Shown here: positions 5,896 to 51,842 of the stretch, in pieces
Numbering within the stretch: the stretch's first letter is position 1
Layout: each line of letters starts with the position of its first letter
From: a candidate division FCPU426 bacterium
Lineage (GTDB): Bacteria; Oederibacteriota; JAUXIB01
DNA length: 64,000 nucleotides
Reading direction: 5' to 3'
Assembly: GCA_030621225.1 (NCBI GenBank)
Contig: JAUXIB010000002.1
Span: 48 to 64,047 of the forward strand
The notes under the pieces: model-generated
What the model saw: the letters and a program-made list of their open reading frames with translations, nothing else
The model's database searches: none
What the model was told of the DNA's origin: nothing
Program-made: the position numbers and the translations under genes

Positions 5896-5916
5896 TTCTT
5901 TCCCCACTTCTTCTCA

Positions 5917-6542: not shown

Positions 6543-6560
6543 ATCAATGATTATATTTAC

Positions 6561-6605
6561 AATACTGACTGGTCAGTATTATAACATGTCAGAATATAAT
6601 GTCAA
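6561..6605 (-). promoter_or_regulatory. tetR promoter (TTGACA-16-TATAAT) with an overlapping 20-bp palindromic operator
   Basis: On the minus strand, TTGACA is at 6605-6600 and TGtTATAAT at 6583-6578. The perfect palindrome AATACTGAC-TG-GTCAGTATT at 6561-6580 overlaps the -10/TSS. Confidence 0.65.
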
Positions 6606-6609
6606 CCTT

Positions 6610-7020
6610 TTACTCCACAAAGATGTTCACCTTATCACCCCCACCGCTATCTACATCCACGCGCAGGTCGCTAAAGGCCTCCACCAGGTCATCAATATTC
6701 TCCGCGTTAGCATTCCTTATATCGAAGTCTATCCCCTTGCCGCGCATCGCGCTGGCCACTTTTTCCTTCGCGCTTTCCGGCAAAAGAGAGCCAAGCTTCA
6801 TACCGGCCTTCAGCATCCTGATCGGAATGCGAATGTTCACCTTTTCCCCCGACGGCTCATCCACCCTCACGCACAGATGTTTTGGCGGAGCCTTCTTGGC
6901 CTGCGGCAGAACATCGCTGGCAGCCTCATTCCCCAGAGCATCTAATAGCTTCCCTGCCTCTTCCGCGGTAATCTTTCCTCCAGCCAGCATCTCCAGGATC
7001 TTCTTTCTTTCCTCGCTCAT
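6610..7020 (-). CDS. SHOCT-like domain protein (partner of the DUF2089 gene)
   Basis: 136 aa. The N-terminal MSEERKKILEMLAGGKITAEEAGKLLDALG is a SHOCT-type short helix pair, followed by a small beta-rich domain (EKVNIRIPIRMLKAG...DKVNIFVE). Confidence 0.6.
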   Translation of the reverse strand: MSEERKKILEMLAGGKITAEEAGKLLDALGNEAASDVLPQAKKAPPKHLCVRVDEPSGEKVNIRIPIRMLKAGMKLGSLLPESAKEKVASAMRGKGIDFDIRNANAENIDDLVEAFSDLRVDVDSGGGDKVNIFVE

Positions 7021-7086
7021 TCCCCGCTCCTTTCATGATACCGATAAAAATAATTTTAAATCACTGCCCATAAACAGGATGGGGCA

Positions 7087-7443
7087 TCATTCTTGCAACT
7101 CCTCGATCGCTTGCTGGGCGGATATTTCACCTTGCTCCAGGCGGTCCAAGACCTCGGCGGCCGATGTCCCTTTATTCACCTCAATGAAGTCAAAATTCTC
7201 TGAGATACGATTCAAGCGATTCTTCACAGATGGGTAACTTATGCCGAACAGCTTCTCCATTTGCTTGATGGAACCATGACTCTTGATAAAAGCCGCCACG
7301 AAGATCTGCTCCTCCATCGGTAGACGAGCAAGCGGCGGAAGCTCAATATCCCCCTCTATCTTCAGCCCGGATTCAACTAGCCTCACACGCTCTACCACCA
7401 TCTCTTTTCCAGCAGTCAATTCCGTCAGCTTTTGCCAATCCAT
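7087..7443 (-). CDS. DUF2089-family putative DNA-binding protein (no zinc-ribbon cysteines)
   Basis: 118 aa. EEQIFVAAFIKSHGSIKQMEKLFGISYPSVKNRLNRI matches the DUF2089 HTH region. The C-terminal EVLDRLEQGEISAQQAIEELQE is SHOCT-like. Confidence 0.7.
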   Translation of the reverse strand: MDWQKLTELTAGKEMVVERVRLVESGLKIEGDIELPPLARLPMEEQIFVAAFIKSHGSIKQMEKLFGISYPSVKNRLNRISENFDFIEVNKGTSAAEVLDRLEQGEISAQQAIEELQE

Positions 7444-7473
7444 CTTGCCACCTCCCTTAACTTATTCAACCTC

Positions 7474-7501
7474 ATTCTAATATATATTAATTATATGTCA
7501 A
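7474..7501 (-). promoter_or_regulatory. sigma70-type promoter TTGACA-16-TAGAAT for the DUF2089 operon
   Basis: rc TTGACA at 7501-7496 and TAGAAT at 7479-7474, in a very AT-rich spacer. The SD GGGAGGTG lies just before ATG 7443. Confidence 0.6.
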
Positions 7502-7573
7502 GTATTAATTAATTAATTTAATTATTTTCAACTAATATATAAAAAAATACTTCCCGGACCACCTTATTTATAA

Positions 7574-7632: not shown

Positions 7633-8280
7633 CTAAAACACATATATGCTTTTATTCTCTCTTTTAGGCTTAACATATCCCTCCGTATCTTCACCTGCCT
7701 TACACTTTGTCTTGCGGGTATTCCGCCTTATCTCGCCCACAATCTCAGAATTATCTTCAGACATTACATATTCTCTCCAGCATTCTTTGGACATTCCCAA
7801 AAGTTCATATAGATCCCCCAGATCTATATCCGCTTTTACGTTGCTAACATGAGCTTTGGCGCTAGACCAGCCCCAATCCCAGGGACAGTTCACCAGTCTT
7901 GCCCTCACCGGATTCCTTTCAATATACTTCGCTGCAGCCACCAGATGACGCTCATTCAAAACACAAGAGTAATATCTTTCCTCCCAGAGCCTTCCTTTTA
8001 GCTGTTTCTTCTCATTAATATTGCGCGCGTGCATTGTATTTATAATATGAAAAGTCCTCGCCAATGCATCTGTTTTTTTCGGCACCACCAAAAGATGGAT
8101 ATGATTACTCATCAAACAGTAGGCAAAAATCGTTAAACCGTATTTTTGACCATACTTTGCGATCCAAGAAAGGTATAGCCTCCTGTCACTGTCGTCAACA
8201 AATACCTGTTGCCCATGATTCCCTCTTTGGGTAATGTGGTACGGCAAATCTTTCACGACTTCCCTTGCTACTCTTGGCAT
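7633..8280 (-). CDS. REP-associated tyrosine transposase (RAYT; IS200/IS605-like Y1 HUH transposase family)
   Basis: 215 aa. YHITQRGN, HUH motif in LMSNHIHLLVVP, catalytic-Tyr region AAKYIERNPVRARLV. SD AGGAGG before ATG 8280. Confidence 0.85.
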   Translation of the reverse strand: MPRVAREVVKDLPYHITQRGNHGQQVFVDDSDRRLYLSWIAKYGQKYGLTIFAYCLMSNHIHLLVVPKKTDALARTFHIINTMHARNINEKKQLKGRLWEERYYSCVLNERHLVAAAKYIERNPVRARLVNCPWDWGWSSAKAHVSNVKADIDLGDLYELLGMSKECWREYVMSEDNSEIVGEIRRNTRKTKCKAGEDTEGYVKPKRENKSIYVF

Positions 8281-8364
8281 TACCTACCTCCTTTCTTTTA
8301 TACTCCTATCCTAGCATCCACCCCTGACAAAAATGGGCCTTTTGGAACAAAAAAATATAAAATA

Positions 8365-8412
8365 GTGACAGTCACGGTGACTGTCACTATGCCTGTCACC
8401 ATGCCTGTCACT
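8365..8412 (+). repeat. 48-bp REP-like repeat, copy 3 (upstream of RAYT, abutting the rtcB stop)
   Basis: Identical to copy 1. It is followed by an extra partial unit, TAGAGTGTCACTTA, whose TTA is the rtcB stop codon (8424-8426). Confidence 0.85.
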
Positions 8413-8423
8413 TAGAGTGTCAC

Positions 8424-9887
8424 TTAGCCTTTGACTACGCCCAGGGGGCGCATGCGGGCAATTACCCGACAAAGGCCGGACCCGGTCAAAACGTTTATAA
8501 CCTGGTTGATGTCCTTGTAGGCTTCCGGCATTTCTTCGGCCAGGGTGCCGCCCTCTTTGGCGCGAACATGAATTCCCTGTGCCGCCAACTCATCGCTGAT
8601 CCTTCTGCCGCCGGCGCGGCGTCTGGCTTCACCGCGGCTGATGGCACGGCCGGCGCCGTGCGATGCGGAGCAAAAGGTCTCGCGTGCCGCCAGCTCACTG
8701 CCGACCACCAGATAGGAAGCAGTACCCATACTGCCCGGGATCGATACCGGTTGCCCGGTACCCTTCAGGTCCGGCGGCAGATCCGGATGGCCTGCCGGAA
8801 AAACACGCGTTGCCCCCTTGCGGTGAACCAGCAGCTCCTGGCATTTACCGTCCAGCTCGTGCTGCTCCAACTTGGCGACGTTGTGAGAATTATCATACAC
8901 CAGGGACAGTCCCAGTTGATCGTCGTCCGCGCCGAAAAAATCCTCCAACCGCTCCCTTACCCAGTGGGTGATCAGCTGACGGTTCGCCCAACCGTAATTG
9001 GCGGCCGCGGCCATTGCGCCAAAGTAGCGTTGCCCTTGCTCGCTGTCAAAGGGCGCGCAGACTAGCTGGCGGTCGGGCACGGTTATACCATGGCGGCCCA
9101 TCGCCCGGCCGAACTCACGCAGGTAATCCTGGCAAACCTGATGCCCTAGCCCACGGGAACCGGAATGCACCATTACCACCATTTGTCCCGCAAACAGTCC
9201 CCACTTGCCGGCAATCTCGTCATCTACTACTTCCACCACCTCCTGGATCTCCAAAAAGTGATTGCCTGCTCCCAGCGTACCCAACTGGGGCGCGCCCCGT
9301 TCCAGGGCGCGTGGTGATACTGCCGCAGGGTTAGCCGCCCGGTAACAGCCGTTCTCCTCACAGCGCTCTATGTCCGCTTCCAATCCATAGCCTTGCTGCA
9401 CCGCCCAGCGCACCCCCTGCTTTAACACCTTTTCCAGCTCGCCCGCCCCCAGACGCAAGCGCCCCTTGACCCCTACCCCGGCGGGAACGGCGCGACTGAG
9501 TTCGTACACTAATTCCTTGATCCTTCCCGCCACCTGCCGCGCTTCCAGATCGCTACGCAGCAAACGCACGCCGCAATTAATATCATAACCCACCCCACCG
9601 GGGGAGATAACCCCCGCCGCGTTCACATCGACAGCCGCCACGCCGCCGATAGGGAATCCATACCCCCAGTGAATGTCAGGCATGGCCAGCGCGTATTTGA
9701 CGATACCGGGCAGGCAGGCTACGTTCGCCACCTGCTGCGGCGTCATCTCAGCACGAAGGGTATCGGCTATCTCGTCATCGGCAACGATCAGCCCCGGCAC
9801 ACGCATGCCGTCCATGTAGGATTGTGGTATCTGGTATTTATAATCGGAGATCTTTTCCAGCTTGCCTGGGAAGGATTCTTTGGACAT
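8424..9887 (-). CDS. rtcB: RNA 3'-phosphate/2',3'-cyclic-phosphate ligase RtcB
   Basis: 487 aa. GYDINCGVRLL, GAGNHFLEIQ, HSGSRGLGHQV and HRKGATR motifs. Confidence 0.93.
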   Translation of the reverse strand: MSKESFPGKLEKISDYKYQIPQSYMDGMRVPGLIVADDEIADTLRAEMTPQQVANVACLPGIVKYALAMPDIHWGYGFPIGGVAAVDVNAAGVISPGGVGYDINCGVRLLRSDLEARQVAGRIKELVYELSRAVPAGVGVKGRLRLGAGELEKVLKQGVRWAVQQGYGLEADIERCEENGCYRAANPAAVSPRALERGAPQLGTLGAGNHFLEIQEVVEVVDDEIAGKWGLFAGQMVVMVHSGSRGLGHQVCQDYLREFGRAMGRHGITVPDRQLVCAPFDSEQGQRYFGAMAAAANYGWANRQLITHWVRERLEDFFGADDDQLGLSLVYDNSHNVAKLEQHELDGKCQELLVHRKGATRVFPAGHPDLPPDLKGTGQPVSIPGSMGTASYLVVGSELAARETFCSASHGAGRAISRGEARRRAGGRRISDELAAQGIHVRAKEGGTLAEEMPEAYKDINQVINVLTGSGLCRVIARMRPLGVVKG

Positions 9888-9996
9888 TGTCTCGTTGCTA
9901 GTCGTCAGTTTACCCTACGAAGCTTCAGCGAAGTAGGGTCACCCGTCATTGGTATTTAGTATCTCGTATCTAGTATCTAGTTGGCCGTCCCGGCAC

Positions 9997-10818
9997 TCAA
10001 GAAAAATTTTTCTCCATCCATTTCACACCGACGTCAACCAAAGATTTAGCATCAAAGAGATATGACTTGGCCATACCAACTTTGCCGGAACGACCCCGGC
10101 TGGACTTAATAAACTGACGCGCTATTTTCGGAAAGTACTCCCCGCCATCCGCGCCCTCAACAATACCACTGTCTGTGTTAAACTCCTCTACTTCAAGCCA
10201 AACACGCCTGCCCTTGCGTTTTAACGGGACCTTGTAACGAACGATCTTCTTGTCCGGTAAGTCAGCCATGTGCTCGGCGTAATGAAGTAAAGTAATGGTG
10301 TCCAGGGACGCACCAAGCAACAAAACCTTTCCTGCTGACTGATATAATTTTTCCAAGGGCGATCCAGGACCGCAACCATAATTCAAGGGATGGCCTTTGG
10401 TTAACCACTTGGCTTTAGCTCCTACCGCGGCCATTGACGCTTCCGGATTACTGCTGCGATAAGCACCGGGCCAGGTACGCAAGTATTCCGTCAATATACT
10501 CCATTCGCGGAAAGCTCTGGATCTGGCGGGATCAAAAGGAGGGCATTCCAACAAATAAGCTGCTCTCTTCTCTCTTGGCCATTGATCTAATAAGTAAGTA
10601 TCCCCCTCCCAGCAGACATACATCATCAACGTACCTTTCGGCCCAAGAACATCAAGAATCGCCTGGATGACCACATCAGGCCCGCCAACGATCCAACCGA
10701 TGGATTTAACCGAAACATGCAGCATGACCATTTGACCAGAGCGAAGTCCAAGTCCCTTAAGGTCCTTGACCAAACGACTGCGAGTTATTATTGCAGGTCT
10801 TTGTTTTTTAGCACTCAT
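9997..10818 (-). CDS. aminoglycoside N3-acetyltransferase family protein (AAC(3)-like)
   Basis: 273 aa. VMLHVSVKSIGWIVGGPDVVIQAILDVLGPKGTLMMY resembles the Antibiotic_NAT N-terminal region. Confidence 0.8.
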   Translation of the reverse strand: MSAKKQRPAIITRSRLVKDLKGLGLRSGQMVMLHVSVKSIGWIVGGPDVVIQAILDVLGPKGTLMMYVCWEGDTYLLDQWPREKRAAYLLECPPFDPARSRAFREWSILTEYLRTWPGAYRSSNPEASMAAVGAKAKWLTKGHPLNYGCGPGSPLEKLYQSAGKVLLLGASLDTITLLHYAEHMADLPDKKIVRYKVPLKRKGRRVWLEVEEFNTDSGIVEGADGGEYFPKIARQFIKSSRGRSGKVGMAKSYLFDAKSLVDVGVKWMEKNFS

Positions 10819-10869
10819 TGGTTCGTATCGCGCAACTCTGTACGCTATACGCTATACGCTGTACGCACA

Positions 10870-13800
10870 TCAGGCTTTCTCAATATCAACGCGGATCTCG
10901 ACGCCAGCGACCTTAACGACGCCGGCCTTGGCAGAGGGGGTATCCTGCTTCAGCTCCAGACAAAGCAGCTCGCTCTTCAGGTAGTCATGGTACTTATCGA
11001 TCGCCTGTAAAAGCTTTTCGTCCTTGGTATCATAGGTAAGGTGTATGCGGTCTTCAATTTCCAGGCCTACCTCCTTGCGCTGCACCTGCAGCTTACGCAG
11101 CAGGTCACGCATCAACCCCTCGATCGCCAACTCCTCGCTGATGGCCAAGTCCAGCGCGACCCAGCCACTCTTCTCCTCAGCGATATACCATCCCTCGGGG
11201 CTGGCCGATTCGAAGATCAGGTCCCCCTCGTCCAGCTTGAGCTTCTCACCGTCAACTTCCAACTCGAAAGCCGTTTCGCCCTTGCGTTTGGCCGCCACGA
11301 AGTTCTCGCCGTTGAGCTTGATGTACTCGATCACCTGCTTCTTCTTTTCGCCGAACTTCTCGCCCAACGCCTTGAAGTCCGGTTTCACCGTCCATTCCAG
11401 TTCGTTCGCCATGCCCGGTTCTTTGATCTCTACGACCTTGACGTTCAAATCGTCCATCAATAGCTTACTGAACCTCTTCACGGCGGCCACCCCCCGCTTA
11501 TCAACGGGGCAAACGATCAGGCGGCTCAAGGGCTGGCGTACTTTTATCTTTGAGCGCTCGCGCGCGGAAAGGGCCAGGCTGGTCAAGCGCACCAGGTATT
11601 CCATGTCATCATATAGCTGCTTATCCACCAGCTTCATATCCGGGCTCGGATATTCAGTGTGGTGCACACTCTCCGGAGCTTTGTCATCCCAACCACGCAC
11701 GATATTCTGATAGATCTCTTCGGATACAAATGGCATTATCGGCGCCAGTGCCTTACTGACCGTTGCCAAACACTCATAAAGTGTTTCCTGGGCGATGTCA
11801 CAGTCAGCTTCATCCTCTACCTTCCAGAAACGCCGACGACAATGCCGGATGTACCAATTCGAAAGGTCCTCAAAGAACCCCTCCAGTTCAGCGCATACCT
11901 TGCGCGTATTATATTCTTCCATCCCCTTGCGCGCCTCTGCCAGCGTCAATTGCAACTTAGAGATAATCCAGCGGTCAAAATCAGTCCGCTTATCAAGCGG
12001 CGTAGGCTTCGCCGGCGGCTTGAACTCGTTCAAGCGGGCGTAATTGGCGTAAAAGGCGTAGCAGTTCCAGAGCGTATTAAAGAAACGGCCACGCACCTCC
12101 TTGGCCAGGTTATAGCCAAAATTCAAGTTGCTGGTCATCTCGTGCGCGCTAAACAGCCAGCGTAATACGTCAACGCCTACCTTCTCGGCCGCCTCATCGA
12201 ACCAGACAGCGTTGCCCTTGGACTTGTGCATCTCCTCACCCTTCTCGTCGCGCATCAGGGCGTAGCCGACCAGGTTCTTGGCGGGAGGGATATTCTCCAT
12301 CATCGTACTCATCGCCAGCAAGGCGTAGAACCAGTTGCGGAATTGTCCCGGGAAACTTTCCAGGATCAAGTCAGCGGGCATCCATTTCTTCCAGTATTCC
12401 CTGTCCTCAAAATATTTGACCGTAGAGTAAGTGACAATGCCGGCATCCAGCCAGGGGTTACCTACATCCGGGATGCGTCGCGCTTCGCCACCACACTTAT
12501 CGCATTTAATGACTACCTCATCTATCCAGGGACGGTGCGGCGTCTTCCCCGCTAACTTATCCCAGCCGCTGATCGCCTTCTTCTCTAGTTCTTCAATACT
12601 GCCAATAACCTGAAACCCAGAACGAGGTACGTTAGGGTCAGTACACTTATCACACACCCAGATCGGCAGGGCCAACCCCCAGTAACGTTTCTTGGAAATC
12701 ATCCAGTCGCGCATATTCTTGAGCCAGTCCAACTCCAGTTCTTTACCGTAGGATGGTATCCAGTTGACCTGCTTAGCGACATCCGCTATCTTCTGGCGCC
12801 AGTCCATGGAAATAAACCACTCGTCTACCAGGCGGAAGAGCAATTCGGTGCCACAGCGCCAACAGTGCGGATAACTGTGCGGGTATTTATCAGAGTGATA
12901 GAGACGTTTCTTATCCTTCAGGTCTTGCTTGATCTCATCAGCAACATCATGCGCGTTCTTGCCGATATACTTGCCGAAGCCATCAACAAAGTTACCCGCC
13001 TCATCTATCGGCACGATCGAGATTAAATCATGTTTCTGACCTAACTCATAATCCTCTTTACCGCAGCCCGGCGCGATATGCACGATGCCGGTACCTTCAT
13101 CCTCGCTCACTTCGTCCCACGGAATGACTTTATGTCTTGGACTGTACCTCGCTCCACCCGAGGACTTCATTTTGAACCATATATTTGGAGTCGTCAACTC
13201 ATCAAATGGTCCATCATACGCAACCGCATCATCCATCAACTTCTGACCTTTGAACTCCTCGATAACCTTGAACTCTCCGCCAGGCTTCAGCACCTTCTTC
13301 GCCAACTTCTTAGCCAGGATCAGCTTCTCTCCGTTCTGTTCAACCTTAACGTAATCATTTTTCGGATGCACGGCCGCCGCGACATTCGAGGTAAGCGTCC
13401 AGGGGGTTGTCGTCCAGACCAATAGCGAAGTCCCCGCTTCCTCCAGCAATGGGAAACGCACAAACATTGAGGGACTCTTGATCTCTTTGTAGCCCTCGGT
13501 CATCTCGTGCTGAGAGATCCCCGTACCACAGCGCGGACACCAGGGCATCACATCGTGTCCCTTGTAGATATGCCCCTCTTCGTGGCACTTCTTCAAAAAA
13601 CTCCAAATGGCATAGTTGTTACTGTCCGCCATCGTGAAATATGAATTGTCCCAGTCCATCCAAGTACCAAGTCGCACCGACTGCTCAGTCTGGATCTTAG
13701 AGTATTTATCGACTCGCTGTTTGCACTGCTCAACGAACTTATCGACACCATACTTCTCGATATCCTTCTTGCTCTTAAAACCAAGCTCCTTTTCTACCTC

Positions 13801-41293: not shown

Positions 41294-41340
41294 GCGCGTG
41301 TGCCTATAACCTAAACTTGATCAGCTAGAGTCTGTCGCCC

Positions 41341-41500
41341 TCACACTCCCTCTGGGTCGCAGGTTCGTTTTATATATAAAAAGCCCTACTTCTCGCTTCT
41401 ACTTTTCCTGGCCAGCCAAGCGACTCATAAAACGCAAAGCTGGCTGGCCATGAGCGAGCGGCAGCGAGTCGAATGGTGGGCCCCGCAGGACTCGAACCTG
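41341..41500 (-). repeat. 160-bp direct repeat, distal copy, ending in a 27-nt tRNA 3'-end fragment (41474-41500)
   Basis: About 7 mismatches over 160 bp versus 41620-41779 by manual alignment. Contains TGGTGGGCCCCGCAGGACTCGAACCTG, which is the T-loop to CCA of the tRNA. Confidence 0.85.
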
Positions 41501-41619
41501 ATCCCGTCGGATCTCTCGCTCCTCCCCATAGGGGGAGTCCCCCCTCTGGTGGTCGGGCGCTAGAAAACGTCTTTGCGCCCTCCCAGTCACCCCCCACATC
41601 GTGAGGGAGCGCTTCTCCC

Positions 41620-41779
41620 TCACACTCCCTCTGGGTCGCAGGTTCGTTTTATATATAAAAAGCCCTACTTCTCGCTTTCGCTTTTTCTGGCCAGCCAAGC
41701 GACTCATAAAACGCTGAGCTGGCTGGCCATGAGCGAGCGGTAGCGAGTCGAATGGTGGGCCCCGCAGGACTCGAACCTG
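41620..41779 (-). repeat. 160-bp direct repeat, proximal copy (133-bp tRNA trailer plus the last 27 nt of the intact tRNA)
   Basis: See the distal copy. Period 279 bp. Internal hairpin GGCCAGCC...GGCTGGCC. Confidence 0.85.
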
Positions 41780-41830
41780 CGACCCGCTGATTATGAGTCA
41801 GCTGCTCTAACCAAGCTGAGCTAGGGGCCC
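41753..41830 (-). tRNA. tRNA with CAU anticodon (elongator Met or lysidine-modified Ile2; the acceptor stem resembles E. coli ileX), CCA encoded
   Basis: rc = GGGCCCCTAGCTCAGCTTGGTTAGAGCAGCTGACTCATAATCAGCGGGTCGCAGGTTCGAGTCCTGCGGGGCCCACCA. Perfect 7/4/5/5-bp cloverleaf stems, loop CU-CAU-AA, discriminator A. Confidence 0.93.
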
Positions 41831-42334
41831 GAAACTTTCGCTTGGCGAAAGTTTCAGAACAGGTGAATAGGCGAGCAGGTGAACAGGTGATGTTTCCGAG
41901 CCTAATCACCTGTGGTCTCCTGCTCTCCTGTCTCCTGCTCCGTTGACTTTACCGCGCTGCAACCAATCACAGAGCCCCCCCGCTTGGCTGCTCACAAGCA
42001 GACGGGGGGGCGGTCTAATCTCGATTTTCGATTCTCGTCTGTTCTACTGCTCTCCTGCTCCAAAAAACTTAATCCAAATACTCTTTCAGCCTTCAGCTTC
42101 GGGCGAAAAAACACCAAATGTGCCAGCTTTTATGACAGACGTGTAATTATACCAAGTTTTCCATCTCAGTTCCACTTTAGTTAGCAATGTTCAGTACGGG
42201 CTTCCGCAACCAACTATACTCCAAAACTTCAGGGTAAAAGATTAAAAGTCCTGGACAGAAATTTCCGAGAATTTTATCTAGGCCTTTCTTGCTTTCTGGG
42301 GCATATCTGCTTGTTGCCTTTCGCCAAACTCTTA

Positions 42335-43956
42335 CCCCAAAAACGAAATAGAGCACAAAAAGCTGAGGTCGGCGAGGAACAACGTGCCAGGGGACTGTTG
42401 ACCAACGGGTGGACATCCAGAGATTGTGTAAGCAGAGCCATCGCCGGGGTAAAAAAAGGCGATGGGCGGTTGAAGGCGTAGCATCCCCTTGTTCGATTGA
42501 CTTGTCTCAAGGATATTCTAGCGGTGGATTCAAGTAGCCGGAGGGGAGCAAATAAGTGGTATCGCTTCGCGCAGCGGCAGCAGTAATTTGAAGGAACGAC
42601 GGGAGAGGTTCAAGAACAGCTGTCTGGCGTGAGTAACTACTTTGCCAGCGATAAAAATCAGCTGCCAGCGCAAGGTGGTGATGGTCTTCTTGATCCAGTC
42701 GCCTTTAAGCACGAAGCGTTTGACGGCAACGGAGAGGTTGTAAGCGATGACGCCGAGGCGGAAGTAAGCGGCGTTGGCGGCGAGTTCCTGGGTGGGAGTG
42801 TATTCTAGTCCGAAGCCGCTTTTCAATTCCTTGTGATAGTTCTCGCTGCTTCCTTTTTGGTTGTGGAAGTGGATCAGCTCTTGCGCGTCGCGCTCGTAAT
42901 CGTTGGTGGCGATGACGTAGTAGCGGTACTTGTATTCATCAAACAATGATGTTTGCTTGCCCTGACATCTTTGGACGATGAGCGTGAAGGATTCTTCGGT
43001 TTTGTTCATGGTATGGACGGTCGTCGCGTATTCTCGGTCGGTCTTGACGCCGTGTCGATCGTGGAGCGGTTGCCAGTCTTCGGCCGGGATGGCCGCTATG
43101 ATTGCTTTTACGGCGATATCCTGGTCAGCGGTGATAGTGAAAGCGATACCCCGCCGGAAGCATTCGTTGAATATCGCGGCCTGGTAAGCGGCGGAATCGG
43201 AGCGGAAGTAGCGTAGCTTTTTGCGCAGCTTTTTGAACAGTTTGTGTGTGTAAATCAACTGCTCCTTGATTCCTGTTTGAGGCGAGACATTCCCTGTCCG
43301 GTAATCATCAACGACACATAAATCCAACTCCGGCAGGTAGCCTAAAAGTGCCGAGAAGCCATGAAACCCCTCGTAGTTCATCGGAGCATCCCCCTTTTTG
43401 CTCTCGGTCAGCGTCGCGTCAACGTCCAGCGTGAACTCTTCCGTTTCGCTGTGTTTGATTATCTCCGCGTTGAGATATTCCATTATCCGCAGCAGTCGGT
43501 TTAGGTTATCTTCCTCTCTCAACCACAGGGCGATAGCGTCGGGGGAAGGCACCCTTCTTATGCCGCACAACTTCAAGAGTCCGTTGTCATCTTTGATCTG
43601 CCGAATGTCCTCCATGAACCTGCCCCCGCCCAGGAACATCAACACGATGGACATTACGTAATCACGCGCTTGGATGCCGCGATTCGATCCGGGGCGCGGG
43701 AACAGTTGATCGATCTTTGACAACAGACCCATTGCTCGTGCCGCTTCAAAAAACACTACGAGGCCGCTCTTGGGTGTGATGCAGTCGGAGGTAATTTTTA
43801 GCTGGAAATCCTGCTGTGGCTGGTGTAGAGTGTCCATGGGTCGTTAATTCCTTTCTCACCCGTTGGGTGAAGTTTAATAATTGCCGTCCAGCTATTATTT
43901 TACAGGATTAACGGCCCTTTTTCTATTATTTGCGTTTTTCTATTTCGGATCTAGGG
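42335..43956 (-). mobile_element. IS1380-family insertion sequence, apparently intact (1622 bp)
   Basis: Terminal IRs CCCCAAAAACGAAATAGA (42335-42352) and rc(43939-43956) CCCTAGATCCGAAATAGA match 14/18 and start with CC. Flanking 5-bp direct repeat TCTTA at 42330-42334 and 43957-43961. Confidence 0.8.
42530..43837 (-). CDS. IS1380-family DDE transposase
   Basis: 435 aa. Collinear resemblance to ISEcp1-type transposases: N-terminal ...KSGLVVFFEAARAMGL, FTLDVDAT, RYFRSDSAAY, YYVIATN...HNQKGSSENYHKELKSGFGL. Confidence 0.88.
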   Translation of the reverse strand: MDTLHQPQQDFQLKITSDCITPKSGLVVFFEAARAMGLLSKIDQLFPRPGSNRGIQARDYVMSIVLMFLGGGRFMEDIRQIKDDNGLLKLCGIRRVPSPDAIALWLREEDNLNRLLRIMEYLNAEIIKHSETEEFTLDVDATLTESKKGDAPMNYEGFHGFSALLGYLPELDLCVVDDYRTGNVSPQTGIKEQLIYTHKLFKKLRKKLRYFRSDSAAYQAAIFNECFRRGIAFTITADQDIAVKAIIAAIPAEDWQPLHDRHGVKTDREYATTVHTMNKTEESFTLIVQRCQGKQTSLFDEYKYRYYVIATNDYERDAQELIHFHNQKGSSENYHKELKSGFGLEYTPTQELAANAAYFRLGVIAYNLSVAVKRFVLKGDWIKKTITTLRWQLIFIAGKVVTHARQLFLNLSRRSFKLLLPLREAIPLICSPPAT

Positions 43957-43969
43957 TCTTACCAAATTG

Positions 43970-43998
43970 TTGAAACAAAGTGTGAATTCTTGTATAAT
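43970..43998 (+). promoter_or_regulatory. near-consensus sigma70 promoter TTGAAA-17-TATAAT for the island R-M-like operon
   Basis: TTGAAA at 43970-43975, 17-nt spacer, TATAAT at 43993-43998. SD AAGGGA before ATG 44048. The -35 lies 14 bp from the IS end. Confidence 0.65.
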
Positions 43999-44047
43999 TA
44001 ACCTTGATAGATGCAACTAGATAACACACTTGTAAAGGGATTATCAA

Positions 44048-45190
44048 ATGGTTTACGCTTCGATTGATTCTCTACAGAAGGCACTCGCGAGTAGTGTCTT
44101 TTCTTATGCAAAAGATTCTAAAAAGGCATCTGGTCGCGCGTTGGGTACTCTCATTGAAGTTATCACATACTATCTGTTAAAAACTTGGAAATTAGAAAAT
44201 CATATTGCCATTGAAAGACCTCTTCCGGAATATCAGAATCCTGATATCACCCACAACGTCGAGTATTCCTTGCATCCATTTGATTCTCTACCTGATTTAG
44301 ATTTCAAAGAATCAGATCTACCTATTACCGCTCGAAAAGTATTTAAGTCCCTCAAAAAGGTAACGACAGTTGATACTCTGGGTAATCTTAAAACTAGCCA
44401 ACTCCTGTCGAGGGCCAAGATATTAAGAAATTCTTGTGTATTAGGCGATGTGAGCCAAGGATTTCTCCTCGCGACTCTTGCGTCTTTATCGGGTAAAGAT
44501 ATAAAAGTATCTGTTCGTCGTTTCTACAATGCGCCATTCGCCATTTTTGAATGTAAACGTGTCGGGATTGAGGAAGGTGTTCGCAAAGGTCCTCAAACGA
44601 TTGAAAAAGCGAAACAAGGAGCTTATGTCGCAAAATCCGTTTCAGCTCTTCAAAAGATTCGTCTTTCAAATGGCAAACTCGAAGGCATATTGCACAAATC
44701 AGATGGAACTCTCCTCCACAAACCCTATGGCACATTTGTACAACAAATTATCAATTCAAGTGATCGAGAACTGCTTAATCAATTTATCTTAACAGTTGGC
44801 GTTGTTAGCAACCATGGCAATTGGTTCACATCTGCAAATCTAAACAAAGAATTAAAAGTGTTAGCTCAATCTTACGATTGGTTGCTTTTTCTAACAGACA
44901 AAGGACTGTCTCAGTTTATTCAGAAATTGATTCTAAAACCAAGCAAGCAATACTTGCCCGTCCGAAAGGCTTTTCTTAATAGCTACAAAGGCAAAAGCGG
45001 CTCCAATCAATTCACAAAGGTCAAAATGAACCTTGAAGCAGATTCTCTTTTAAAAGAGTTTTTTAGACGTAATGTTATTTCGATTCACAAATGGTTTAAT
45101 GTTATAAGCCCGACTGGTAAAAAGTTATCCAAACTTCAGAAAGAGCTTCGAATTCTTACACGAAAGAATTGGAAAGACATTCGGTCATGA
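44048..45190 (+). CDS. hypothetical protein, putative restriction endonuclease (PD-(D/E)xK-like D...ExK)
   Basis: 380 aa, AT-rich. GKDIKVSVRRFYNAPFAIFECKR gives D-x17-E-x-K. The stop overlaps the methylase ATG (ATGA). Confidence 0.45.
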   Translation: MVYASIDSLQKALASSVFSYAKDSKKASGRALGTLIEVITYYLLKTWKLENHIAIERPLPEYQNPDITHNVEYSLHPFDSLPDLDFKESDLPITARKVFKSLKKVTTVDTLGNLKTSQLLSRAKILRNSCVLGDVSQGFLLATLASLSGKDIKVSVRRFYNAPFAIFECKRVGIEEGVRKGPQTIEKAKQGAYVAKSVSALQKIRLSNGKLEGILHKSDGTLLHKPYGTFVQQIINSSDRELLNQFILTVGVVSNHGNWFTSANLNKELKVLAQSYDWLLFLTDKGLSQFIQKLILKPSKQYLPVRKAFLNSYKGKSGSNQFTKVKMNLEADSLLKEFFRRNVISIHKWFNVISPTGKKLSKLQKELRILTRKNWKDIRS

Positions 45191-45777
45191 CTGCTGGCAG
45201 AACAGTAAATTCCAAGAGTCACGATTGGGGCACTCCTTTAAAATACGTCCAAGCAGTTAAGGAAGTATTTAATGGTTCAATAGACCTTGATCCTTGCTCT
45301 AATAAACACTCCATCGTAAATGCCAACACAGAATACATATTACCCAAACATGATGGGTTAACCGAATCATGGGATTTCAAGACAATCTATATAAATCCCC
45401 CATATGGGTCAGATCGTTCTAAAGGTACCACAATCAAAAACTGGCTCAGACGCTGCAATGATGCTCATAAGAAATATGATTCTGAGATACTAGCTCTAGT
45501 CCCAGTCGCCACTAATACTACTCACTGGAAGTATTATGTATGGGGACAGGCAACAAGTATATGCTTCTTATACGATACAAGGTTGCGTTTTCTAATCAAT
45601 GGGAAGGATGTTGGGAAGGGAGCACCAATGTCATGTGCTATGATTTATTGGGGATCGAATTATAATAAGTTCTTTGAAGTCTTTAGACAATTCGGCGCCA
45701 TCGTTGACATACAAGCACTTCACAAGCTTGATATGGGCAGTGGGAAGATACTGCAAACGGCACTATTTGAAGAATAA
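45187..45777 (+). CDS. DNA N6-adenine methyltransferase, phage Dam family (PF05869-like)
   Basis: HDWGTPLKYV..., LDPCS, DGL..W, catalytic IYINPPYG, LVPVATNTTHW. ATG 45187 overlaps the upstream stop; the track start 45169 is also possible. Confidence 0.85.
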   Translation: MTAGRTVNSKSHDWGTPLKYVQAVKEVFNGSIDLDPCSNKHSIVNANTEYILPKHDGLTESWDFKTIYINPPYGSDRSKGTTIKNWLRRCNDAHKKYDSEILALVPVATNTTHWKYYVWGQATSICFLYDTRLRFLINGKDVGKGAPMSCAMIYWGSNYNKFFEVFRQFGAIVDIQALHKLDMGSGKILQTALFEE

Positions 45778-45818
45778 TCTTAATTATCTTCTTGAATGCA
45801 ACCCAACAGTCCTCTGGT

Positions 45819-47906
45819 TCAGGCTCTATTCTGTTTTTCCATGTTCTGGATATACTCGTATTCAAAGTACCAATCGAGCGTTTTGAATGAAACGTGTTTC
45901 AGGTTCATGATTGCAGTTTTCAAATCACTTGGGCTATTAACCTTGTCTAGAAGAATTAAGAACTGGGGAACGCTTAGAAACCAGCTTCTGAAGAACGGAA
46001 TCTTCTCTTGACTCCCAAGCAGTGAATATAGCTTAGAATACTTCTTTGAAAATTGCTCGCATCGCTCATTCAGCTTTTTGTATTTTCCTTCTCTCTCTTT
46101 TCCACTTCCAAATTTGCTATTCAGAAATAAAACAAGAAGTTGCCTGATAATTGTCCTATCCTGTAATGCTCCATAGTCTAAAAGCACTAATGATATTTTT
46201 TCGATTCTACGGCTATTCAGATGTAGCATTTCTCCCGACTTGAGAGTTAACTTCCCATCTCTAATTAGCGAATATTCGTGCCCAAGCATCTGATACTGTG
46301 AGTCCAAAAGGCTTTCCTTAACATCTAACAGTAGCTTCTCTGCGTCTCCACTGCGAGATTTCCTGGTAATGCTCTTCTTCTTGATTTCAATGAGACAGAT
46401 CAAATCATCAAACTCTATCGCGATATCAATCTCACCGTCTTCTCCATCAGAGTTCGTATACTCGCCACTGAGAACAGGGATGTTGCATTTGATTAGCCGG
46501 TTCTTTACGAAATTCTCAATAGGCTCTCCAAGTCTATTATCAAGACATTTAATGGCCGTTCTATAGTAGCAAAGGATAGCTTCTATAAGAGCATGGCAGC
46601 AATATGATGAGCAAGGAATCAACAGTTGGTTCTCACCTGTTAAGATGAACGGCTTGAAGAAGGCTTTGACACTTACGTAGTCGGCGGGAGATACAAAGCT
46701 AACGTTCGGTGGTGATTCATGGCAGAGAAGCCTAATAGCTGCATTAAACTTGGTGGGTGAAAGCTTACTCGCTCTTCCCTCCAATTCTTTTAAGTCAACT
46801 ATCTTCGGCATTTCTGACGATAAATACTCAGCCAATATACCGATAAGATATTGCCAGTCTGAATACGTTAGATCAAAGCTATCGTCTTCATAGTCCTTTA
46901 TCCACGAGAAGAGTTCCTCTACGAACAATGGCAGGTCGTCTAGTCTAACTTGGTATATCCGATAATTACTTTCAAGCAAACTCAATTCTGATAGCATCCG
47001 CACAGTGCCAATCCCGCTTTTCCATTCGGTCTCCCATGGAGTATATGGTTCAACATTCATACTAGATAGTAGTGCTGTCGAAAGGAGAATTAGGTCACTC
47101 CAAAGCTCTTGATGAGTACCTTCCTTCGCAGATCCTCTATCGGGAAAGCGAAGCGCAAGGTTAAACAGATATCCCCAAGGAACCGTTGGCTCCCGACGAC
47201 TTCCCAAGGAGTCAGTCAGTATTGGGAATTGGTACCTCTTAAGATTAGCGCTATATCTTCCGTTATCGCGCAAACACGAAAACATCTTTTCCAAGAACCT
47301 AACTCCGCCATATGCCTTCATCAAAACCGCAAGTTTGCAGCCTATCTTTTCGCATTCTGGTTTTTCTACCCACACATCACCATCTTCTATTCTATACTTT
47401 AGATTGAACCTGTCTTTGAGTATTAGGATTGATTTGCTTACTGCTGCCAACCGTGAATCCATAACTATTGCTGGCTTACTGTTTATCTCAGTATTAGATA
47501 ACCTTAGCTTATCTTTTAACAGTTCAAACGTGTTGACCAGAGGCTTTTGGCTAACGGTTTTGATCTTATCGTCCGCTGTAAATAGAGAGAATAACTGTTC
47601 GCACACCTTTACATACAACCACTCATCTTCCCTATTGATAATGCATCTAAGTTGAAACGACTTTCTAGCTCTTACTATCAGTGCTCTTGCCGATTCTCCT
47701 TCATCATCGCAGAAAGTCCGAACTATCTCTTCGTGTATCTTCTCAATAAGTTTCGGCTGCTGGTAGTTGCCGTTTTCGCAAGAATACCTTTTTCTAAGCT
47801 CTTTCAGTTGATTGTTGTCAAGGGGAGGAGTATCCCAGCCAATTTCGTTTATGGCATTCTTGAATGCATTCAATTTTTCATTGGTAATAATTATATCTTT
47901 GCTCAT
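45819..47906 (-). CDS. large hypothetical protein with a C-terminal PD-(D/E)xK nuclease signature
   Basis: 695 aa from ATG 47906. GEIDIAIEFDDLICLIEIKKK (DNA 46372-46443) gives D-x13-E-x-K. No other motif was recognised. It is the most AT-rich gene in the window. Confidence 0.75.
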   Translation of the reverse strand: MSKDIIITNEKLNAFKNAINEIGWDTPPLDNNQLKELRKRYSCENGNYQQPKLIEKIHEEIVRTFCDDEGESARALIVRARKSFQLRCIINREDEWLYVKVCEQLFSLFTADDKIKTVSQKPLVNTFELLKDKLRLSNTEINSKPAIVMDSRLAAVSKSILILKDRFNLKYRIEDGDVWVEKPECEKIGCKLAVLMKAYGGVRFLEKMFSCLRDNGRYSANLKRYQFPILTDSLGSRREPTVPWGYLFNLALRFPDRGSAKEGTHQELWSDLILLSTALLSSMNVEPYTPWETEWKSGIGTVRMLSELSLLESNYRIYQVRLDDLPLFVEELFSWIKDYEDDSFDLTYSDWQYLIGILAEYLSSEMPKIVDLKELEGRASKLSPTKFNAAIRLLCHESPPNVSFVSPADYVSVKAFFKPFILTGENQLLIPCSSYCCHALIEAILCYYRTAIKCLDNRLGEPIENFVKNRLIKCNIPVLSGEYTNSDGEDGEIDIAIEFDDLICLIEIKKKSITRKSRSGDAEKLLLDVKESLLDSQYQMLGHEYSLIRDGKLTLKSGEMLHLNSRRIEKISLVLLDYGALQDRTIIRQLLVLFLNSKFGSGKEREGKYKKLNERCEQFSKKYSKLYSLLGSQEKIPFFRSWFLSVPQFLILLDKVNSPSDLKTAIMNLKHVSFKTLDWYFEYEYIQNMEKQNRA

Positions 47907-48144
47907 GATAAGCCTAGTTACTGTTTGGTATATGATACAAAGGTCTAATAACAAATAAAGGTTATCTTCCTCCGCCCTTTGAGTCAACCCTGCAAAAGCA
48001 GAACCCTAGGGCAATTGTCCAGGATTCCATGCTTGTGACAAAAATGTGCCAACTAATTGGCACCAAACTGGTAAATCCGGCAAATCGTGTCAAGATCGGT
48101 AGGCGCAGACACAAGGAGGTCTACTGTTCTGATACTTTGATGCC

Positions 48145-48176
48145 AAAAAAAACAGGGGCGGCTCGCGAGCCGCCCC
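48145..48176 (-). terminator. rho-independent terminator of rpoD
   Basis: Minus strand reads GGGGCGGCTC-GC-GAGCCGCCCC followed by TGTTTTTTTT. Confidence 0.85.
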
Positions 48177-48281
48177 TACGAATACCCTTCATCACCCCCT
48201 CCACCCCTATAACTAAATCCTTCCTTCTTCCTTCCCCTCCCTGTACAGGTGAGGGGAGAGATTAAAAGGAAATAATTTTAT

Positions 48282-50030
48282 TTAATCCAAATATCCCCTC
48301 AGCTTGCGGCTGCGCGAGGGGTGCCTCAGTTTCCGCAGCGCCTTGGCCTCTATCTGGCGCACGCGTTCCCGGGTCACGTTGAAGATATTACCCACTTCCT
48401 CCAATGTGTGCGGATAGCCGTTCTTCAGGCCAAAACGCAAGGTCAATACCTCCGCCTCGCGCGCCTTGAGTGAGCTAAGCACTCTGACCAATTGCTCGCG
48501 CAGCAGGATATAAAAGGCGGCGTTCACCGGCGACTGCACCTCTTTGTCCTCGATAAAATCACCCAAATGGCTGTCGCGTTCCTCGCCGATCGGCGTCTCC
48601 AAAGAGATAGGCTCCTGGGCGATCTTGAGGATGCCGCGCACCTTTTCCACCGGCATTTCCATACGCTCGGCAATCTCCTCCGGCAAGGGCTCCCGTCCCA
48701 GCTCCTGGACTATCTGACGCGAGAACTTGATGGACTTATTAATTGTCTCGATCATATGCACCGGGATACGAATGGTACGCGCCTGGTCGGCAATGGCCCG
48801 CGTGATCGCCTGCCTGATCCACCAGGTGGCATAAGTAGAAAACTTGTACCCCCGCCGGTACTCAAACTTCTCCACGGCACGCATCAAGCCAATATTACCC
48901 TCTTGGATAAGATCCAGAAACTGCAGGCCCCGGTTGGTGTATTTTTTGGCTATAGAGATCACCAACCTAAGATTCGCCTCTACCAGCTCCATGCGCGCAC
49001 GATAAGTCTCGTTCTCCGCGGACTGCACGCGTTTATAGAGGCGTTTCAATCCATCGGCACTCATGCCGCTCTTACTGCATAACCCACGGATGGTCTTCCC
49101 TGATTCGCGCAGGCGCCGCTCCTGCTCCAGGATCTCTACTCCCCGCATGCCCGTCTTCTTTTCCACCGCGCGGGCGGTACGACCGCCCTGCTTGATACGC
49201 GCGGCCATTTTTCTCACCTCAGCAGTAATACAACCCAAACGGCGCTCGACATCCCGGCAACAGGCCTCCTGATCACGCACCCCGCGTGCCAGCCGCCTGA
49301 ATTCCTCCACGAACCCATCCGCGGTCTTTTCATCCATGCCGATTTTCTCAGCTTGAACCATGACGCGCGCGCGCAGGTCGAGTTGCCGTTTGACAACCTT
49401 GACCTTAGTCGCCTCGCGCAACTTCTTCTTCAGCATGCTGGTGTTCTTGTCCAGGCCCTTGTGCAACTTATTGATCCTGGTCATCGCTTTCTGCAGCCGC
49501 TTAGTCATCTCCGCACTCATCGCGATCGCTTCTTCCCCGCCGTCCTTGAAAACACCAGAGCCCTTACTGCGTTGAGCGATCAGCAACTTCGAATGGTCTT
49601 CAAGAATACCTATAACCGAATGGGAAACAAAGATCAACTCCAGCCTTTTCTTCCGTCCCTTCTCTATACGCTTAGCTATCGCCACTTCCTCTTCACGAGT
49701 GAGCAAATCCACCTTGCCCATCTCATGCAGATACATCTTCACCGAATCTTCCATGCGCGCTTCTACCGCGGGACTCTGGCGAGATGTCTTTATTACGCGT
49801 TCCTTTTTCAGCCTGACACTGGGTTCCTCGGCCCTGCCGCCGTCCACAATGCTGATATCCATCTCTCCCAGCTTGATCAGGATGTCGTCGATCTCCTCCG
49901 CCGAGACAAGGTCATCCGGCAAGAGATCGTTCACCTCTTCATAGCTAAGATACCCCTTGGCCTTGCCCATGGTGATAATCCTGTCTACCGCACTCTTGCG
50001 AGTATCCTTCTCTTCCACCGTATCCTCCAT
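48282..50030 (-). CDS. rpoD: RNA polymerase primary sigma factor (sigma70)
   Basis: 582 aa. [27 protein letters not shown] (region 2.3-2.4); region 4.2 [28 protein letters not shown]. Confidence 0.96.
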
Positions 50031-50048: not shown

Positions 50049-51842
50049 CTAAATCGGCTCCTTCTCCATCGACAGCTTCAAACAACGCATCTCCTCGGCA
50101 AGCTCCACCTGCCGTCTCTCGCCATCAACCCCTTGACCCTGCAGCTCCTTCATCTGCTGCCTAATAGCACTTGTTCTCTCCTTCAGGCCTTCCGACCTGA
50201 ATACACGCAAGTAATCGCTAACAGGCACGGGGTCTTCCCGTTCCGCCTTTGCCTCCGCATTCATATAATAGGAAAGAAAATAGCTGCGTTCCTCTTCCCC
50301 GGTCAAAATATCGAGAACAGCGGCCGGAGCTATCGCCCGTCCCGTATCCTCCTTGCTTATCTTCGCCACCTGCGCACCGCATACCTCCGGGGGCACACTA
50401 TATTTCTCCAATCCTGCCGCTATTTGCGCGCGCAGACTGGGGTCTATCAACATATGCGCCAACAGTTCCAAGCGGGTTCTGTCCAGCCGATCCAGCTTGC
50501 GCCGTTCTACAGGCTGGTCCTTTGCCCCGGACCCGGACCGCCGCGCCGGCGTCCTACTTCCCGCCACCCCTGTACGCAGCATGCTTTCCGATACCCCCGC
50601 CTTCTCCGCCAAATAATGGCGATGGACATCCCGCGAGACCGGGTCCGGTATTTTCTCCACCAGAGGCATCAACCGGCGCGCCAATTCCAGACGCTCATCC
50701 AGACTAAGCGGCCGCTTGCCGATCTCCTTTACGGAGAGATAATAATCGACCAGGTTTTGCCCCGTCGCCAGTAACTTCTGCAAGCTCTCGGCCCCGGCTT
50801 CACGCACGTAATCATCCGGGTCCTTACCCTGCGGCAGGCTTACCACCTTCGCCTCCAGCCCCGACTCTGCCGCCGTTTCAAAGGCGCGCATCGTGGCCTC
50901 TACGCCGGCCCGATCAGTATCAAAGACAAAGATCACCTGCCGGGTATAACGGTGCACTAATTTCGCCTGCTCGACCGTAAAAGCGGTTCCCAGTACAGCG
51001 GCAATATTAGGCACCCCCGCCTGCGCCACCATTAACAGATCAAAATAACCCTCTACGATGACCAGCTTATCCCGGTGACGAACCCCTTCGCGCGCAGCGT
51101 CCAGCCCGTATAACACCCGGCTCTTATGATAAAGCGGCGTCTCCGGTGAATTAAGATATTTCGGCTCAACTTCATCGTCCAAAGTTCGCCCGCCAAAAGC
51201 AACCACCTTACCATAGTGGTTACCGATGGGCATCATCAACCTGTTGCGAAAACGATCGTAATACCCCGACCCTTGTTTGCTCTTTAATACCAGACCGGCC
51301 TTCTCGGCGGCGGGTTCGGCCACACCCTGCCGCTTGAGCCTGGCTAATAACAGGTTTCCTTTGGCCGGGGCCAGCCCCAAACGAAAGCGCTTGATGATCT
51401 CGCCGCTGATGCCGCGATTGGTCAGATAAGCCCTGGCCGCCTGGCCCGAAGCACCCATCAACTGATCCTGGTAAAACTCTACAGCCAGCTCATTAAGGCT
51501 TAACAGGAGCTCACGCTCACGCGCCCGTGCGTCGTCCTCATCCCCGCCTACCTTTAATTCAATCCCCGCCCGCTTTGCCATACGCTGCAAGGCTTCGGGA
51601 AAAGTTATTCCTTCCAACTGCATTAAAAAGCTAAAGACGTTGCCGCCCTTCTGGCAGCCATAGCAAAAGTACACCTGCTTATCCGGATTAACGGAAAAAG
51701 ACGGCTTCTTTTCCTGATGAAAAGGGCAAAGGGCAGAGTAGTTTTTCCCCGCCTTCTTTAAAGACAGGTGCTCGCCGATAATATCGGCTATATCCACCCC
51801 TTCCCTGATCCTGTCGATGGTTTCCTGGCTTACTCTCGGCAT
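50049..51842 (-). CDS. dnaG: DNA primase
   Basis: Zinc ribbon CPFHQEKKPSFSVNPDKQVYFCYGC; Toprim VIVEGYFD. Start moved to ATG 51842 (MPRVSQETIDRI); the track's extra 26 aa are encoded by a repeat tract. Confidence 0.93.
   Translation of the reverse strand: MPRVSQETIDRIREGVDIADIIGEHLSLKKAGKNYSALCPFHQEKKPSFSVNPDKQVYFCYGCQKGGNVFSFLMQLEGITFPEALQRMAKRAGIELKVGGDEDDARARERELLLSLNELAVEFYQDQLMGASGQAARAYLTNRGISGEIIKRFRLGLAPAKGNLLLARLKRQGVAEPAAEKAGLVLKSKQGSGYYDRFRNRLMMPIGNHYGKVVAFGGRTLDDEVEPKYLNSPETPLYHKSRVLYGLDAAREGVRHRDKLVIVEGYFDLLMVAQAGVPNIAAVLGTAFTVEQAKLVHRYTRQVIFVFDTDRAGVEATMRAFETAAESGLEAKVVSLPQGKDPDDYVREAGAESLQKLLATGQNLVDYYLSVKEIGKRPLSLDERLELARRLMPLVEKIPDPVSRDVHRHYLAEKAGVSESMLRTGVAGSRTPARRSGSGAKDQPVERRKLDRLDRTRLELLAHMLIDPSLRAQIAAGLEKYSVPPEVCGAQVAKISKEDTGRAIAPAAVLDILTGEEERSYFLSYYMNAEAKAEREDPVPVSDYLRVFRSEGLKERTSAIRQQMKELQGQGVDGERRQVELAEEMRCLKLSMEKEPI

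Follow-up and report, generated by a model that had tools for sequence, protein, structure and literature searches.

In a 64,000-nt stretch of DNA from a candidate division FCPU426 bacterium (GTDB lineage Bacteria; Oederibacteriota; JAUXIB01; assembly GCA_030621225.1, contig JAUXIB010000002.1, positions 48–64,047 of the forward strand; hereafter the window), a minus-strand gene for a 695-aa protein, noted in a preliminary description made from the letters of the window and its open reading frames (ORFs), was analyzed computationally. The gene probably encodes a self-contained defence nuclease of the GapS1 kind, in a horizontally acquired variable region between an IS1380-family transposase gene and rpoD. 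The family to which the protein belongs is large, still unnamed and made up of stand-alone nucleases from many bacterial phyla; the C-terminal half of the protein is predicted to be a PD-(D/E)xK, Mg2+-type phosphodiesterase fold with an invariant active-site set, and the family is, as judged by profile comparison, a remote, N-terminally extended relative of GapS1. The preliminary description had put the protein forward as a defence component, and for that role it is a credible candidate.

An AlphaFold2 model of the protein was built from an alignment of 73 sequences (21–46% identity to the query), giving a predicted local distance difference test score (pLDDT) of 94.9 and a predicted template modelling score (pTM) of 0.93. 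The nuclease core in the model has the order alpha-beta-beta-beta-alpha-beta (helix 460–473, strands 479–484, 490–498 and 502–509, helix 522–550, strand 567–574), with E464 in the first helix, D494 in strand 490–498, E507 and K509 in strand 502–509, and Q539 in helix 522–550. Invariant in all 73 sequences are P243, P419, G460, E464, G481, D494, E507, K509, G520 and Q539, and a further 23 positions are at least 90% conserved; the D/E/K triad is among the invariant positions and hence marks a conserved active site that is not explained by chance. The PD-(D/E)xK signature named in the preliminary description therefore belongs to a genuine nuclease domain. The peptide given for it, DGEDGEIDIAIEFDDLICLIEIKKK, is present, but the range assigned to it (46372–46443) is out of frame and the real one is 46374–46448, and the spacing is D494-x12-E507-x-K509, not D-x13-E-x-K as had been stated; the reported absence of Walker A, helicase, methylase and helix-turn-helix motifs agrees with profile scans, in which no such family was detected. 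Mean pairwise identity is 0.19 over residues 1–185 and 0.26–0.37 elsewhere, with 37% in the nuclease core. Within residues 186–430, which contain the invariant P243 (PWGYLFNLA motif) and P419, R224, Q319, H396, N401 and P407 are conserved at 90% or more. Weak matches to DUF4143, NERD, UPF0102/YraN and DUF234, which are taken here to be families of one clan, recur in Pfam scans of 69 members. Together with Cas4, these families are matched around the D494...E507-x-K509 strand core; they measure ~120–250 residues, whereas the matches cover ~55 residues and fall far below curated cut-offs. A Foldseek search of the PDB with the full-length model returned, after a first match that is weighed below, Cdn1/Can2, McrC, the R2 retrotransposon endonuclease and Nt.BspD6I, each a PD-(D/E)xK enzyme; a fold search of BFVD gave no significant match, and the PDB holds no solved structure for the ~700-aa family or for GapS1.

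GapS1, encoded in Vibrio GMT islands, acts as a single protein and has its PD-(D/E)xK site (D313, K328) toward the C-terminus; for this system the T7 capsid protein Gp10 was reported as trigger and dormancy as outcome, growth arrest requires D313 and K328, and E. coli homologues were validated (bioRxiv 10.1101/2023.03.28.534373). The native E. coli gapS1 gene was located from the synthetic-gene sequence in Table S3 of that study, and a GapS1 profile was made from five sequences, namely E. coli GapS1 and four divergent homologues, including K. pneumoniae WP_004154311.1, which is the dominant entry as far as the Klebsiella rows of the authors' homologue list go (bioRxiv 10.1101/2023.03.28.534373). 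The native E. coli gene encodes 508 aa and is annotated by the Prokaryotic Genome Annotation Pipeline (PGAP) as 'GapS1 family protein'; by megablast in E. coli genomes, EJP5250929.1 was matched and WP_152927281.1 was unmatched. Local hhalign alignment of the 695-aa family against the GapS1 profile gave a probability of 92.7% (E 4.1e-7, 336 columns, query residues 186–554 against GapS1 18–386), and global alignment gave 92.6% over 439 columns, with GapS1 residue 1 placed at position 177 of the family hidden Markov model (HMM); an unrelated control family reached 0.0–0.3% in the same comparison. The family HMM scored 38 bits (E 1.7e-13) on E. coli GapS1, and the five-sequence GapS1 HMM scored up to 31.6 bits on family members. 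Residues paired between the family and GapS1 are P243/P54, W244/W55, P419/P238, E464/E283, D494/D315, K509/K330 and Q539/Q361, at a nearly constant offset of ~180–189.

In both GapS1 and the family, a PD-(D/E)xK domain with an equal residue set and spacing comes after a non-catalytic N-terminal region (E283, D315, (D/E)-x-K330 and Q361 in GapS1; E464, D494, E507-x-K509 and Q539 in the family), and they have in common a PW...NL..K motif near the start of the shared region and an F-K-P motif before the nuclease core. On this alignment, residues 186–430 are judged homologous to the non-catalytic N-terminal region of GapS1. Each is encoded by a single gene that lacks a conserved partner, and each occurs on prophages, plasmids and islands of distant taxa. 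The two differ in length, GapS1 having ~508–532 aa and the family ~700 aa, through an extra, poorly conserved N-terminal extension of 185 residues; the C-terminal tail of the family cannot be aligned to that of GapS1, and the plasmid sets recovered by BLAST-level searches with GapS1 and with the family do not overlap. In E. coli Ecol_AZ147, a gapS1 gene of the validated type (locus 4973–7527) directly adjoins the integrase of a P2-like prophage, a position presumed here to be a known hotspot for defence cargo.

The preliminary description had called the protein an orphan. An exhaustive HMMER search against 1.84 billion representatives recovered 884 representative clusters at E ≤ 1e-3, 685 at E ≤ 1e-10 and 305 at E ≤ 1e-30, so that the label is wrong; a word-indexed homology search, which yielded just 5–6 proteins, including three ~45%-identical ones and one distant one, would misleadingly have agreed with it. 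Most members have 690–715 aa and match the query from about residue 150–190 to the C-terminus. Family taxa include Gammaproteobacteria, Bacteroidota, Desulfovibrio, Cyanobacteria, Bacillota, Alphaproteobacteria and Melainabacteria, and relatives' loci, located among GTDB species representatives by peptide patterns from a 7-sequence family alignment, were found in a gammaproteobacterial metagenome-assembled genome (MAG), Dyella, Pedobacter, Desulfovibrio, Herbaspirillum, Acetobacteraceae, Caenarcaniphilales, Microcoleus, Clostridia, Bacillus, Stutzerimonas and Sulfurimonas. Members are also carried on 15 plasmids, with hosts among Xanthomonas, Alteromonas, Rhizobium, Bradyrhizobium, Methylobacter, Acinetobacter and Shewanella. 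One of 50,697 phage genomes has a copy, that of the temperate Burkholderia phage phiBt-TXDOH (4773–6451), where it lies beside a transposase in the early/accessory region and is apparently disrupted, being split into two adjacent ORFs. No model in Pfam, PADLOC (2023) or NCBIfam matches the ~700-aa family, and in single-sequence scans against Pfam, PADLOC, NCBIfam and PHROGs the best matches were only CEP44 (E 0.1) and YraN (E 0.16). PGAP labels one member 'YraN family protein', and a literature search by the accession numbers of family members found no papers.

Upx, reportedly a system of Gao et al. 2020, has the same single-protein layout, in which a PD-(D/E)xK nuclease at the C-terminal side comes after a large N-terminal region, and the 695-aa protein was weighed as a shortened member of Upx, with an N-terminal terminase sensor and a C-terminal PD-(D/E)xK effector. 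Upx is a validated single protein of 1272 aa, built of an NTD, an MD and a CTD (PMC13099982). Its catalytic residues are D1161, E1176 and K1178, its ExK motif is essential and is required for terminase-triggered toxicity, a second, atypical nuclease lies at the N-terminus, and the nuclease core forms the last ~150 residues; one study describes a Mg2+-dependent 3'-5' single-stranded DNA exonuclease, and another describes sensing of the large terminase (PMC13099982, PMC13601566). The 695-aa protein can be likened to Upx in its proposed sensor-plus-nuclease logic, with activation by a conserved phage protein, and Upx (9wuf) is the first PDB match of the full-length model in the Foldseek search (E 1.7e-4, probability 1.00, 686 alignment columns), although at a TM-score of only 0.25/0.17 and a root-mean-square deviation of 20 Å. 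The resemblance apparently comes from the C-terminal half, since residues 1–425 modelled alone (pLDDT 89.4) have no relative by Foldseek against the PDB (best E 0.77, Upx absent) and are dissimilar to Upx. The protein is half the size of Upx and has no detectable sequence similarity to it, its nuclease core stops short of the C-terminal end, with ~95–185 residues after it, sequence searches of the PDB retrieved no relative from the single sequence and, from the family profile, no chain even at E ≤ 10, 9wuf included, and PADLOC (2023) matched neither the query nor 16 other members (17 in all). Because size, N-terminal fold and sequence are not shared, the protein is not assigned to Upx, and membership is given very little credence.

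For the genomic context, 24 further family loci were sampled, and all-against-all comparison of 239 ORFs from 23 independent loci showed that the query family is the only family present in more than two loci, so that its gene is a solitary module without a conserved partner. Scanning 135 flanking ORFs within 5 kb at 20 loci against PADLOC and Pfam identified two full-length Gabija GajA proteins (E 1e-292, two loci), several AriA/OLD/PtuA-type ATPases, AbiLi, AbiH, MADS components, HEC-01A, NsnB and WYL regulators, as well as mobility genes (Mutator-family transposases, KfrA). Single loci carry NACHT/DUF4062 and NERD proteins; DUF5677 and Hypoth_Ymh proteins beside an ORF with an RNNLFH (HEPN-like) motif; AbiEii; ThiF, MPN, UvrD and WYL; a Gabija-like pair between IS256 copies; and a NucS-domain protein with an integrase and a cytosine methylase. 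The family gene travels alone in variable, defence-rich, mobile regions across many phyla. A nuclease that serves the mobile element itself, in competition between plasmids or integrative and conjugative elements, in exclusion or in DNA processing, instead of anti-phage immunity, would suit the conjugative nature of 12 of the 15 carrying plasmids, the transposases, integrases and KfrA in the flanks, and the IS1380 element that the copy in the window adjoins. The mobile context does not discriminate between such a role and defence, because defence genes themselves ride such elements; no conserved partner and no fixed position relative to transfer, replication or integration genes were seen in these loci, many copies are chromosomal and lie among recognised defence genes, and the family is homologous to an experimentally validated anti-phage protein, GapS1. 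Service to the mobile element is therefore considered unlikely, though not negligible.

The nuclease stands alone, with no methylase cognate to it at any of 23 loci, as would be expected of a type IV-like, modification-dependent endonuclease, in which the N-terminal helices read a modified base and the PD-(D/E)xK domain cuts DNA without a protein trigger; its defence and mobile contexts and the presence of McrC among its structural matches also agree with such an enzyme. No modified-base reader or DNA-binding family was detected in up to 69 members by Pfam, NCBIfam and PADLOC, and Foldseek of residues 1–425 shows no reader domain, a result that leaves room for a reader of novel fold. For GapS1, the closest homologue with a characterised function, a capsid protein was reported as trigger and dormancy as outcome, and the adenine methylase encoded next to the gene in the window looks active, so that an enzyme dependent on N6-methyladenine would harm its own host unless the specificities differ. 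A type IV-like enzyme is accordingly held to be distinctly unlikely, and a GapS1-like defence nuclease is preferred.

Several points weigh against the assignment to GapS1-like defence. The hhalign probability of 92.7%, obtained with a profile of five sequences, is under the ~95% usually deemed safe. The curated GapS1 model NF047931 (cut-off 320 bits) does not match the 695-aa protein at E ≤ 1; E. coli GapS1 as control scores 401.6 bits, and eight other family members fail, with only one (P0133) scoring at all, at 15 bits. When only the tails were aligned, the family and the GapS1 C-terminus gave an hhalign probability of 0.3%, and the tails are unrelated. The neighbours at some family loci are ordinary (ABC transporter permeases, acetyltransferases), and the association with defence islands is qualitative. 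A defence function is inferred for the ~700-aa family, and a sensor role of the N-terminal region is an assumption, because residues 1–425 have no structural relative.

From the nuclease fold and the analogy to GapS1 and Upx, a sensor-nuclease mechanism is proposed. In the uninfected cell, the helical N-terminal ~430 residues would hold the nuclease inactive, as by analogy with GapS1 and Upx; a phage-derived cue, by the same analogy most likely an abundant, conserved structural or packaging protein, would then be bound, and binding would release or assemble the nuclease. Once activated, the nuclease would cleave nucleic acid in a Mg2+-dependent manner, and phage replication would be halted by dormancy or abortive infection. 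The variable N-terminal extension would be the best candidate for the specificity determinant. A further proposal, put forward tentatively and at somewhat less than an even chance, is that the ~700-aa family is a distinct single-protein immune system, in which the 185-residue extension would set a phage trigger other than the capsid and the ~430-residue sensor has no solved relative.

Single-protein PD-(D/E)xK defence nucleases are an established theme, and the family would enlarge a recently described class. If the ~700-aa family is indeed such a distinct immune system, it and GapS1 together would make up a wide superfamily of modular sensor-nucleases present in most bacterial phyla. If a defence function is confirmed, 884 clusters now labelled 'hypothetical' (occasionally 'YraN family') would become a recognised anti-phage system, and the GapS1 kind would reach Cyanobacteria, Bacteroidota, Bacillota and Desulfobacterota, beyond the mostly Klebsiella/enterobacterial homologues in the consulted part of the published list. 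With a common core and an extra variable N-terminal domain in one of the two, the comparison of GapS1 with the family would also lend itself to the study of trigger specificity in single-protein sensors.

Two members depart from the usual layout. One of 988 aa (P0041) has an N-terminal addition of ~450 residues with a marginal match to the CAP12/Pycsar TIR domain (E 0.005, below cut-off), and may, to go by this match, have a second effector domain fused to it. Relatives of P0007 (gammaproteobacterial MAG, locus ~8001–12842) form a clade in which two overlapping genes come after the family gene, one for a 79-aa protein and one for an 837-aa SMC_N/DUF2813/AAA_21 (OLD/AriA-like) ATPase, and this arrangement may be a three-gene variant of the system. 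The N-terminal addition and the gene trio hint at a modular elaboration of the family.

In the window, the gene converges on that of a Dam-family methylase, whose stop codon is exactly 41 bp away, and a gene for a 380-aa protein overlaps the methylase gene (Table 1). From this distance and the similar composition, both of which were confirmed, the preliminary description had proposed, besides a modification-sensing enzyme, that the nuclease was cognate to the methylase or served as effector in a three-gene system. The PD-(D/E)xK fold and the adjacent methylase gene are also features of type II endonucleases paired with Dam methylases, and all three genes lie in one island of low GC (0.38–0.41). 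The synteny check proposed in the preliminary description found no such linkage: by local tblastn, neither the Dam-type methylase nor the 380-aa protein has a homologue at any of the 24 further family loci, and no neighbour recurs, so the three-gene unit was rejected. Conservation over ~500 residues across phyla is moreover atypical for type II enzymes. Two homologues of the 380-aa protein were located on many contigs. In Ignavibacteria and Smithella, two unrelated contexts, a 380-aa gene is followed by an overlapping PF05869 Dam gene (199–209 aa) among housekeeping genes, with no member of the 695-aa family nearby; as the pair recurs without the 695-aa family, the cassette is autonomous, and the conserved partner of the methylase is the 380-aa protein. 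The nuclease gene and the cassette are in opposite orientation and each has its own promoter-like site. A nuclease cognate to the methylase, or part of a three-gene system, is for these reasons exceedingly improbable, and the stand-alone defence nuclease is retained; the shared low GC is compatible with two independent modules in one variable region.

The 380-aa and Dam genes are probably a type II restriction-modification (R-M) cassette, separate from the nuclease gene. The 380-aa family comprises more than 3,485 clusters at 55–62% identity and 378–380 aa, all annotated 'hypothetical', and this identity spans Ignavibacteria, Planctomycetota, Cyanobacteriota, KSB1 and Smithella, a conservation that is unusually high for a putative restriction enzyme. 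The protein has an invariant E168-x-K170; its family has no Pfam or PDB match, and the only PADLOC match, to REase_II, is marginal. The pair may represent an uncharacterised, widely transferred R-M system. That two adjacent genes of equal composition turned out to be independent modules is a caution for inference from islands.

Table 1. Features of the nuclease gene, its product and the surrounding island (coordinates of the window; residues are those of the 695-aa protein)
Feature	Coordinates	Strand	Description	Evidence
IS1380-family transposase	42530..43837	-	left flank of the island, GC 0.526	NF033539 E 2e-79
Near-consensus promoter of the 380-aa + Dam cassette	43970-43998	+		consensus scan
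380-aa protein gene	44048-45190	+	overlaps methylase gene by 22 bp	
Dam-family N6-adenine methylase, 202 aa	45169-45777	+		PF05869 E 2.4e-15; phrog_111 E 3e-26
Nuclease gene	45819..47906	-	complete, 695 aa; stop codon 45819-45821, ATG 47904-47906	ORF list, homologue alignment, AlphaFold2
C-terminal tail, residues 601-695	45822..46106	-	helical; F643, S645, D678, Y680 conserved in family	
PD-(D/E)xK nuclease core, residues 431-600	46107..46616	-		AlphaFold2 model, Foldseek, weak Pfam matches
Q539 codon	46290-46292	-	invariant; just beyond the catalytic span	
Predicted catalytic residues	46380..46517	-	E464 46515-46517, D494 46425-46427, E507 46386-46388, K509 46380-46382	
Residues 186-430	46617..47351	-	mostly helical; predicted homologue of the GapS1 N-terminal (presumed sensor/regulatory) region	hhalign
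N-terminal extension, residues 1-185	47352..47906	-	helical, absent from GapS1, least conserved part	
Promoter-like site upstream of the 695-aa gene	48014..48041	-	TTGTCA-16-GACAAT, 9/12 matches	consensus scan; weak evidence
rpoD intrinsic terminator, strong	48152..48179	-	12-bp stem, 8 G-C pairs, T7 tail	

The minus-strand ORF from the ATG at 47906 is real, as had been described. Longer readings are one of 722 aa from TTG 47987, the longest, and one of 711 aa called by NCBI; the alignment of every homologue begins at the ATG at 47906 and so supports a product of 695 aa. The AT-rich setting was likewise confirmed, the island at 44000–48000 having a GC content of 0.398 against 0.527 and 0.551 in its flanks, and the earlier hand counts of G+C are exact (18/60 for 46081–46140, 32/60 for 50401–50460). 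The three island genes have 38–41% G+C, and the IS1380 transposase (52.6%) and rpoD (55.2%) look host-like in composition, unlike the island genes. The consensus scan found promoter-like sites in the region in the number expected from shuffled sequence. On its right, the low-GC island ends at the terminator of rpoD, which separates rpoD from the 695-aa gene; the latter would be transcribed from the stretch between this terminator and its own start codon.

For the island borders, two candidates were considered and rejected. A 166-nt direct repeat (41335–41500 and 41614–41779, 95% identity, 279 nt apart), the second copy of which overlaps the 3' end of tRNA-Met (41753–41830, minus strand), is perhaps a duplicated tRNA 3' end with downstream sequence, left by an integration event, and it does not bracket the island; the tRNA-Met gene is unlikely to be the integration site of the island, because that gene has the island on its 5' side. 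A 33-nt match (76%) joins 42069–42101 to 48282–48314, where rpoD has its final codons, and would enclose both the IS1380 element and the island; the copy to the left of the element resembles a decayed RS*RLKEYLD* relative to the end of rpoD. With a score of 26, where shuffled sequences average 20 ± 2.2 and reach 28 at most, the match is not significant and may be due to chance. The IS1380 transposase is intact, and proteins that cluster with it at 90% identity, each of 435 aa, are encoded on three further short assembly contigs, which suggests that the element was recently active.

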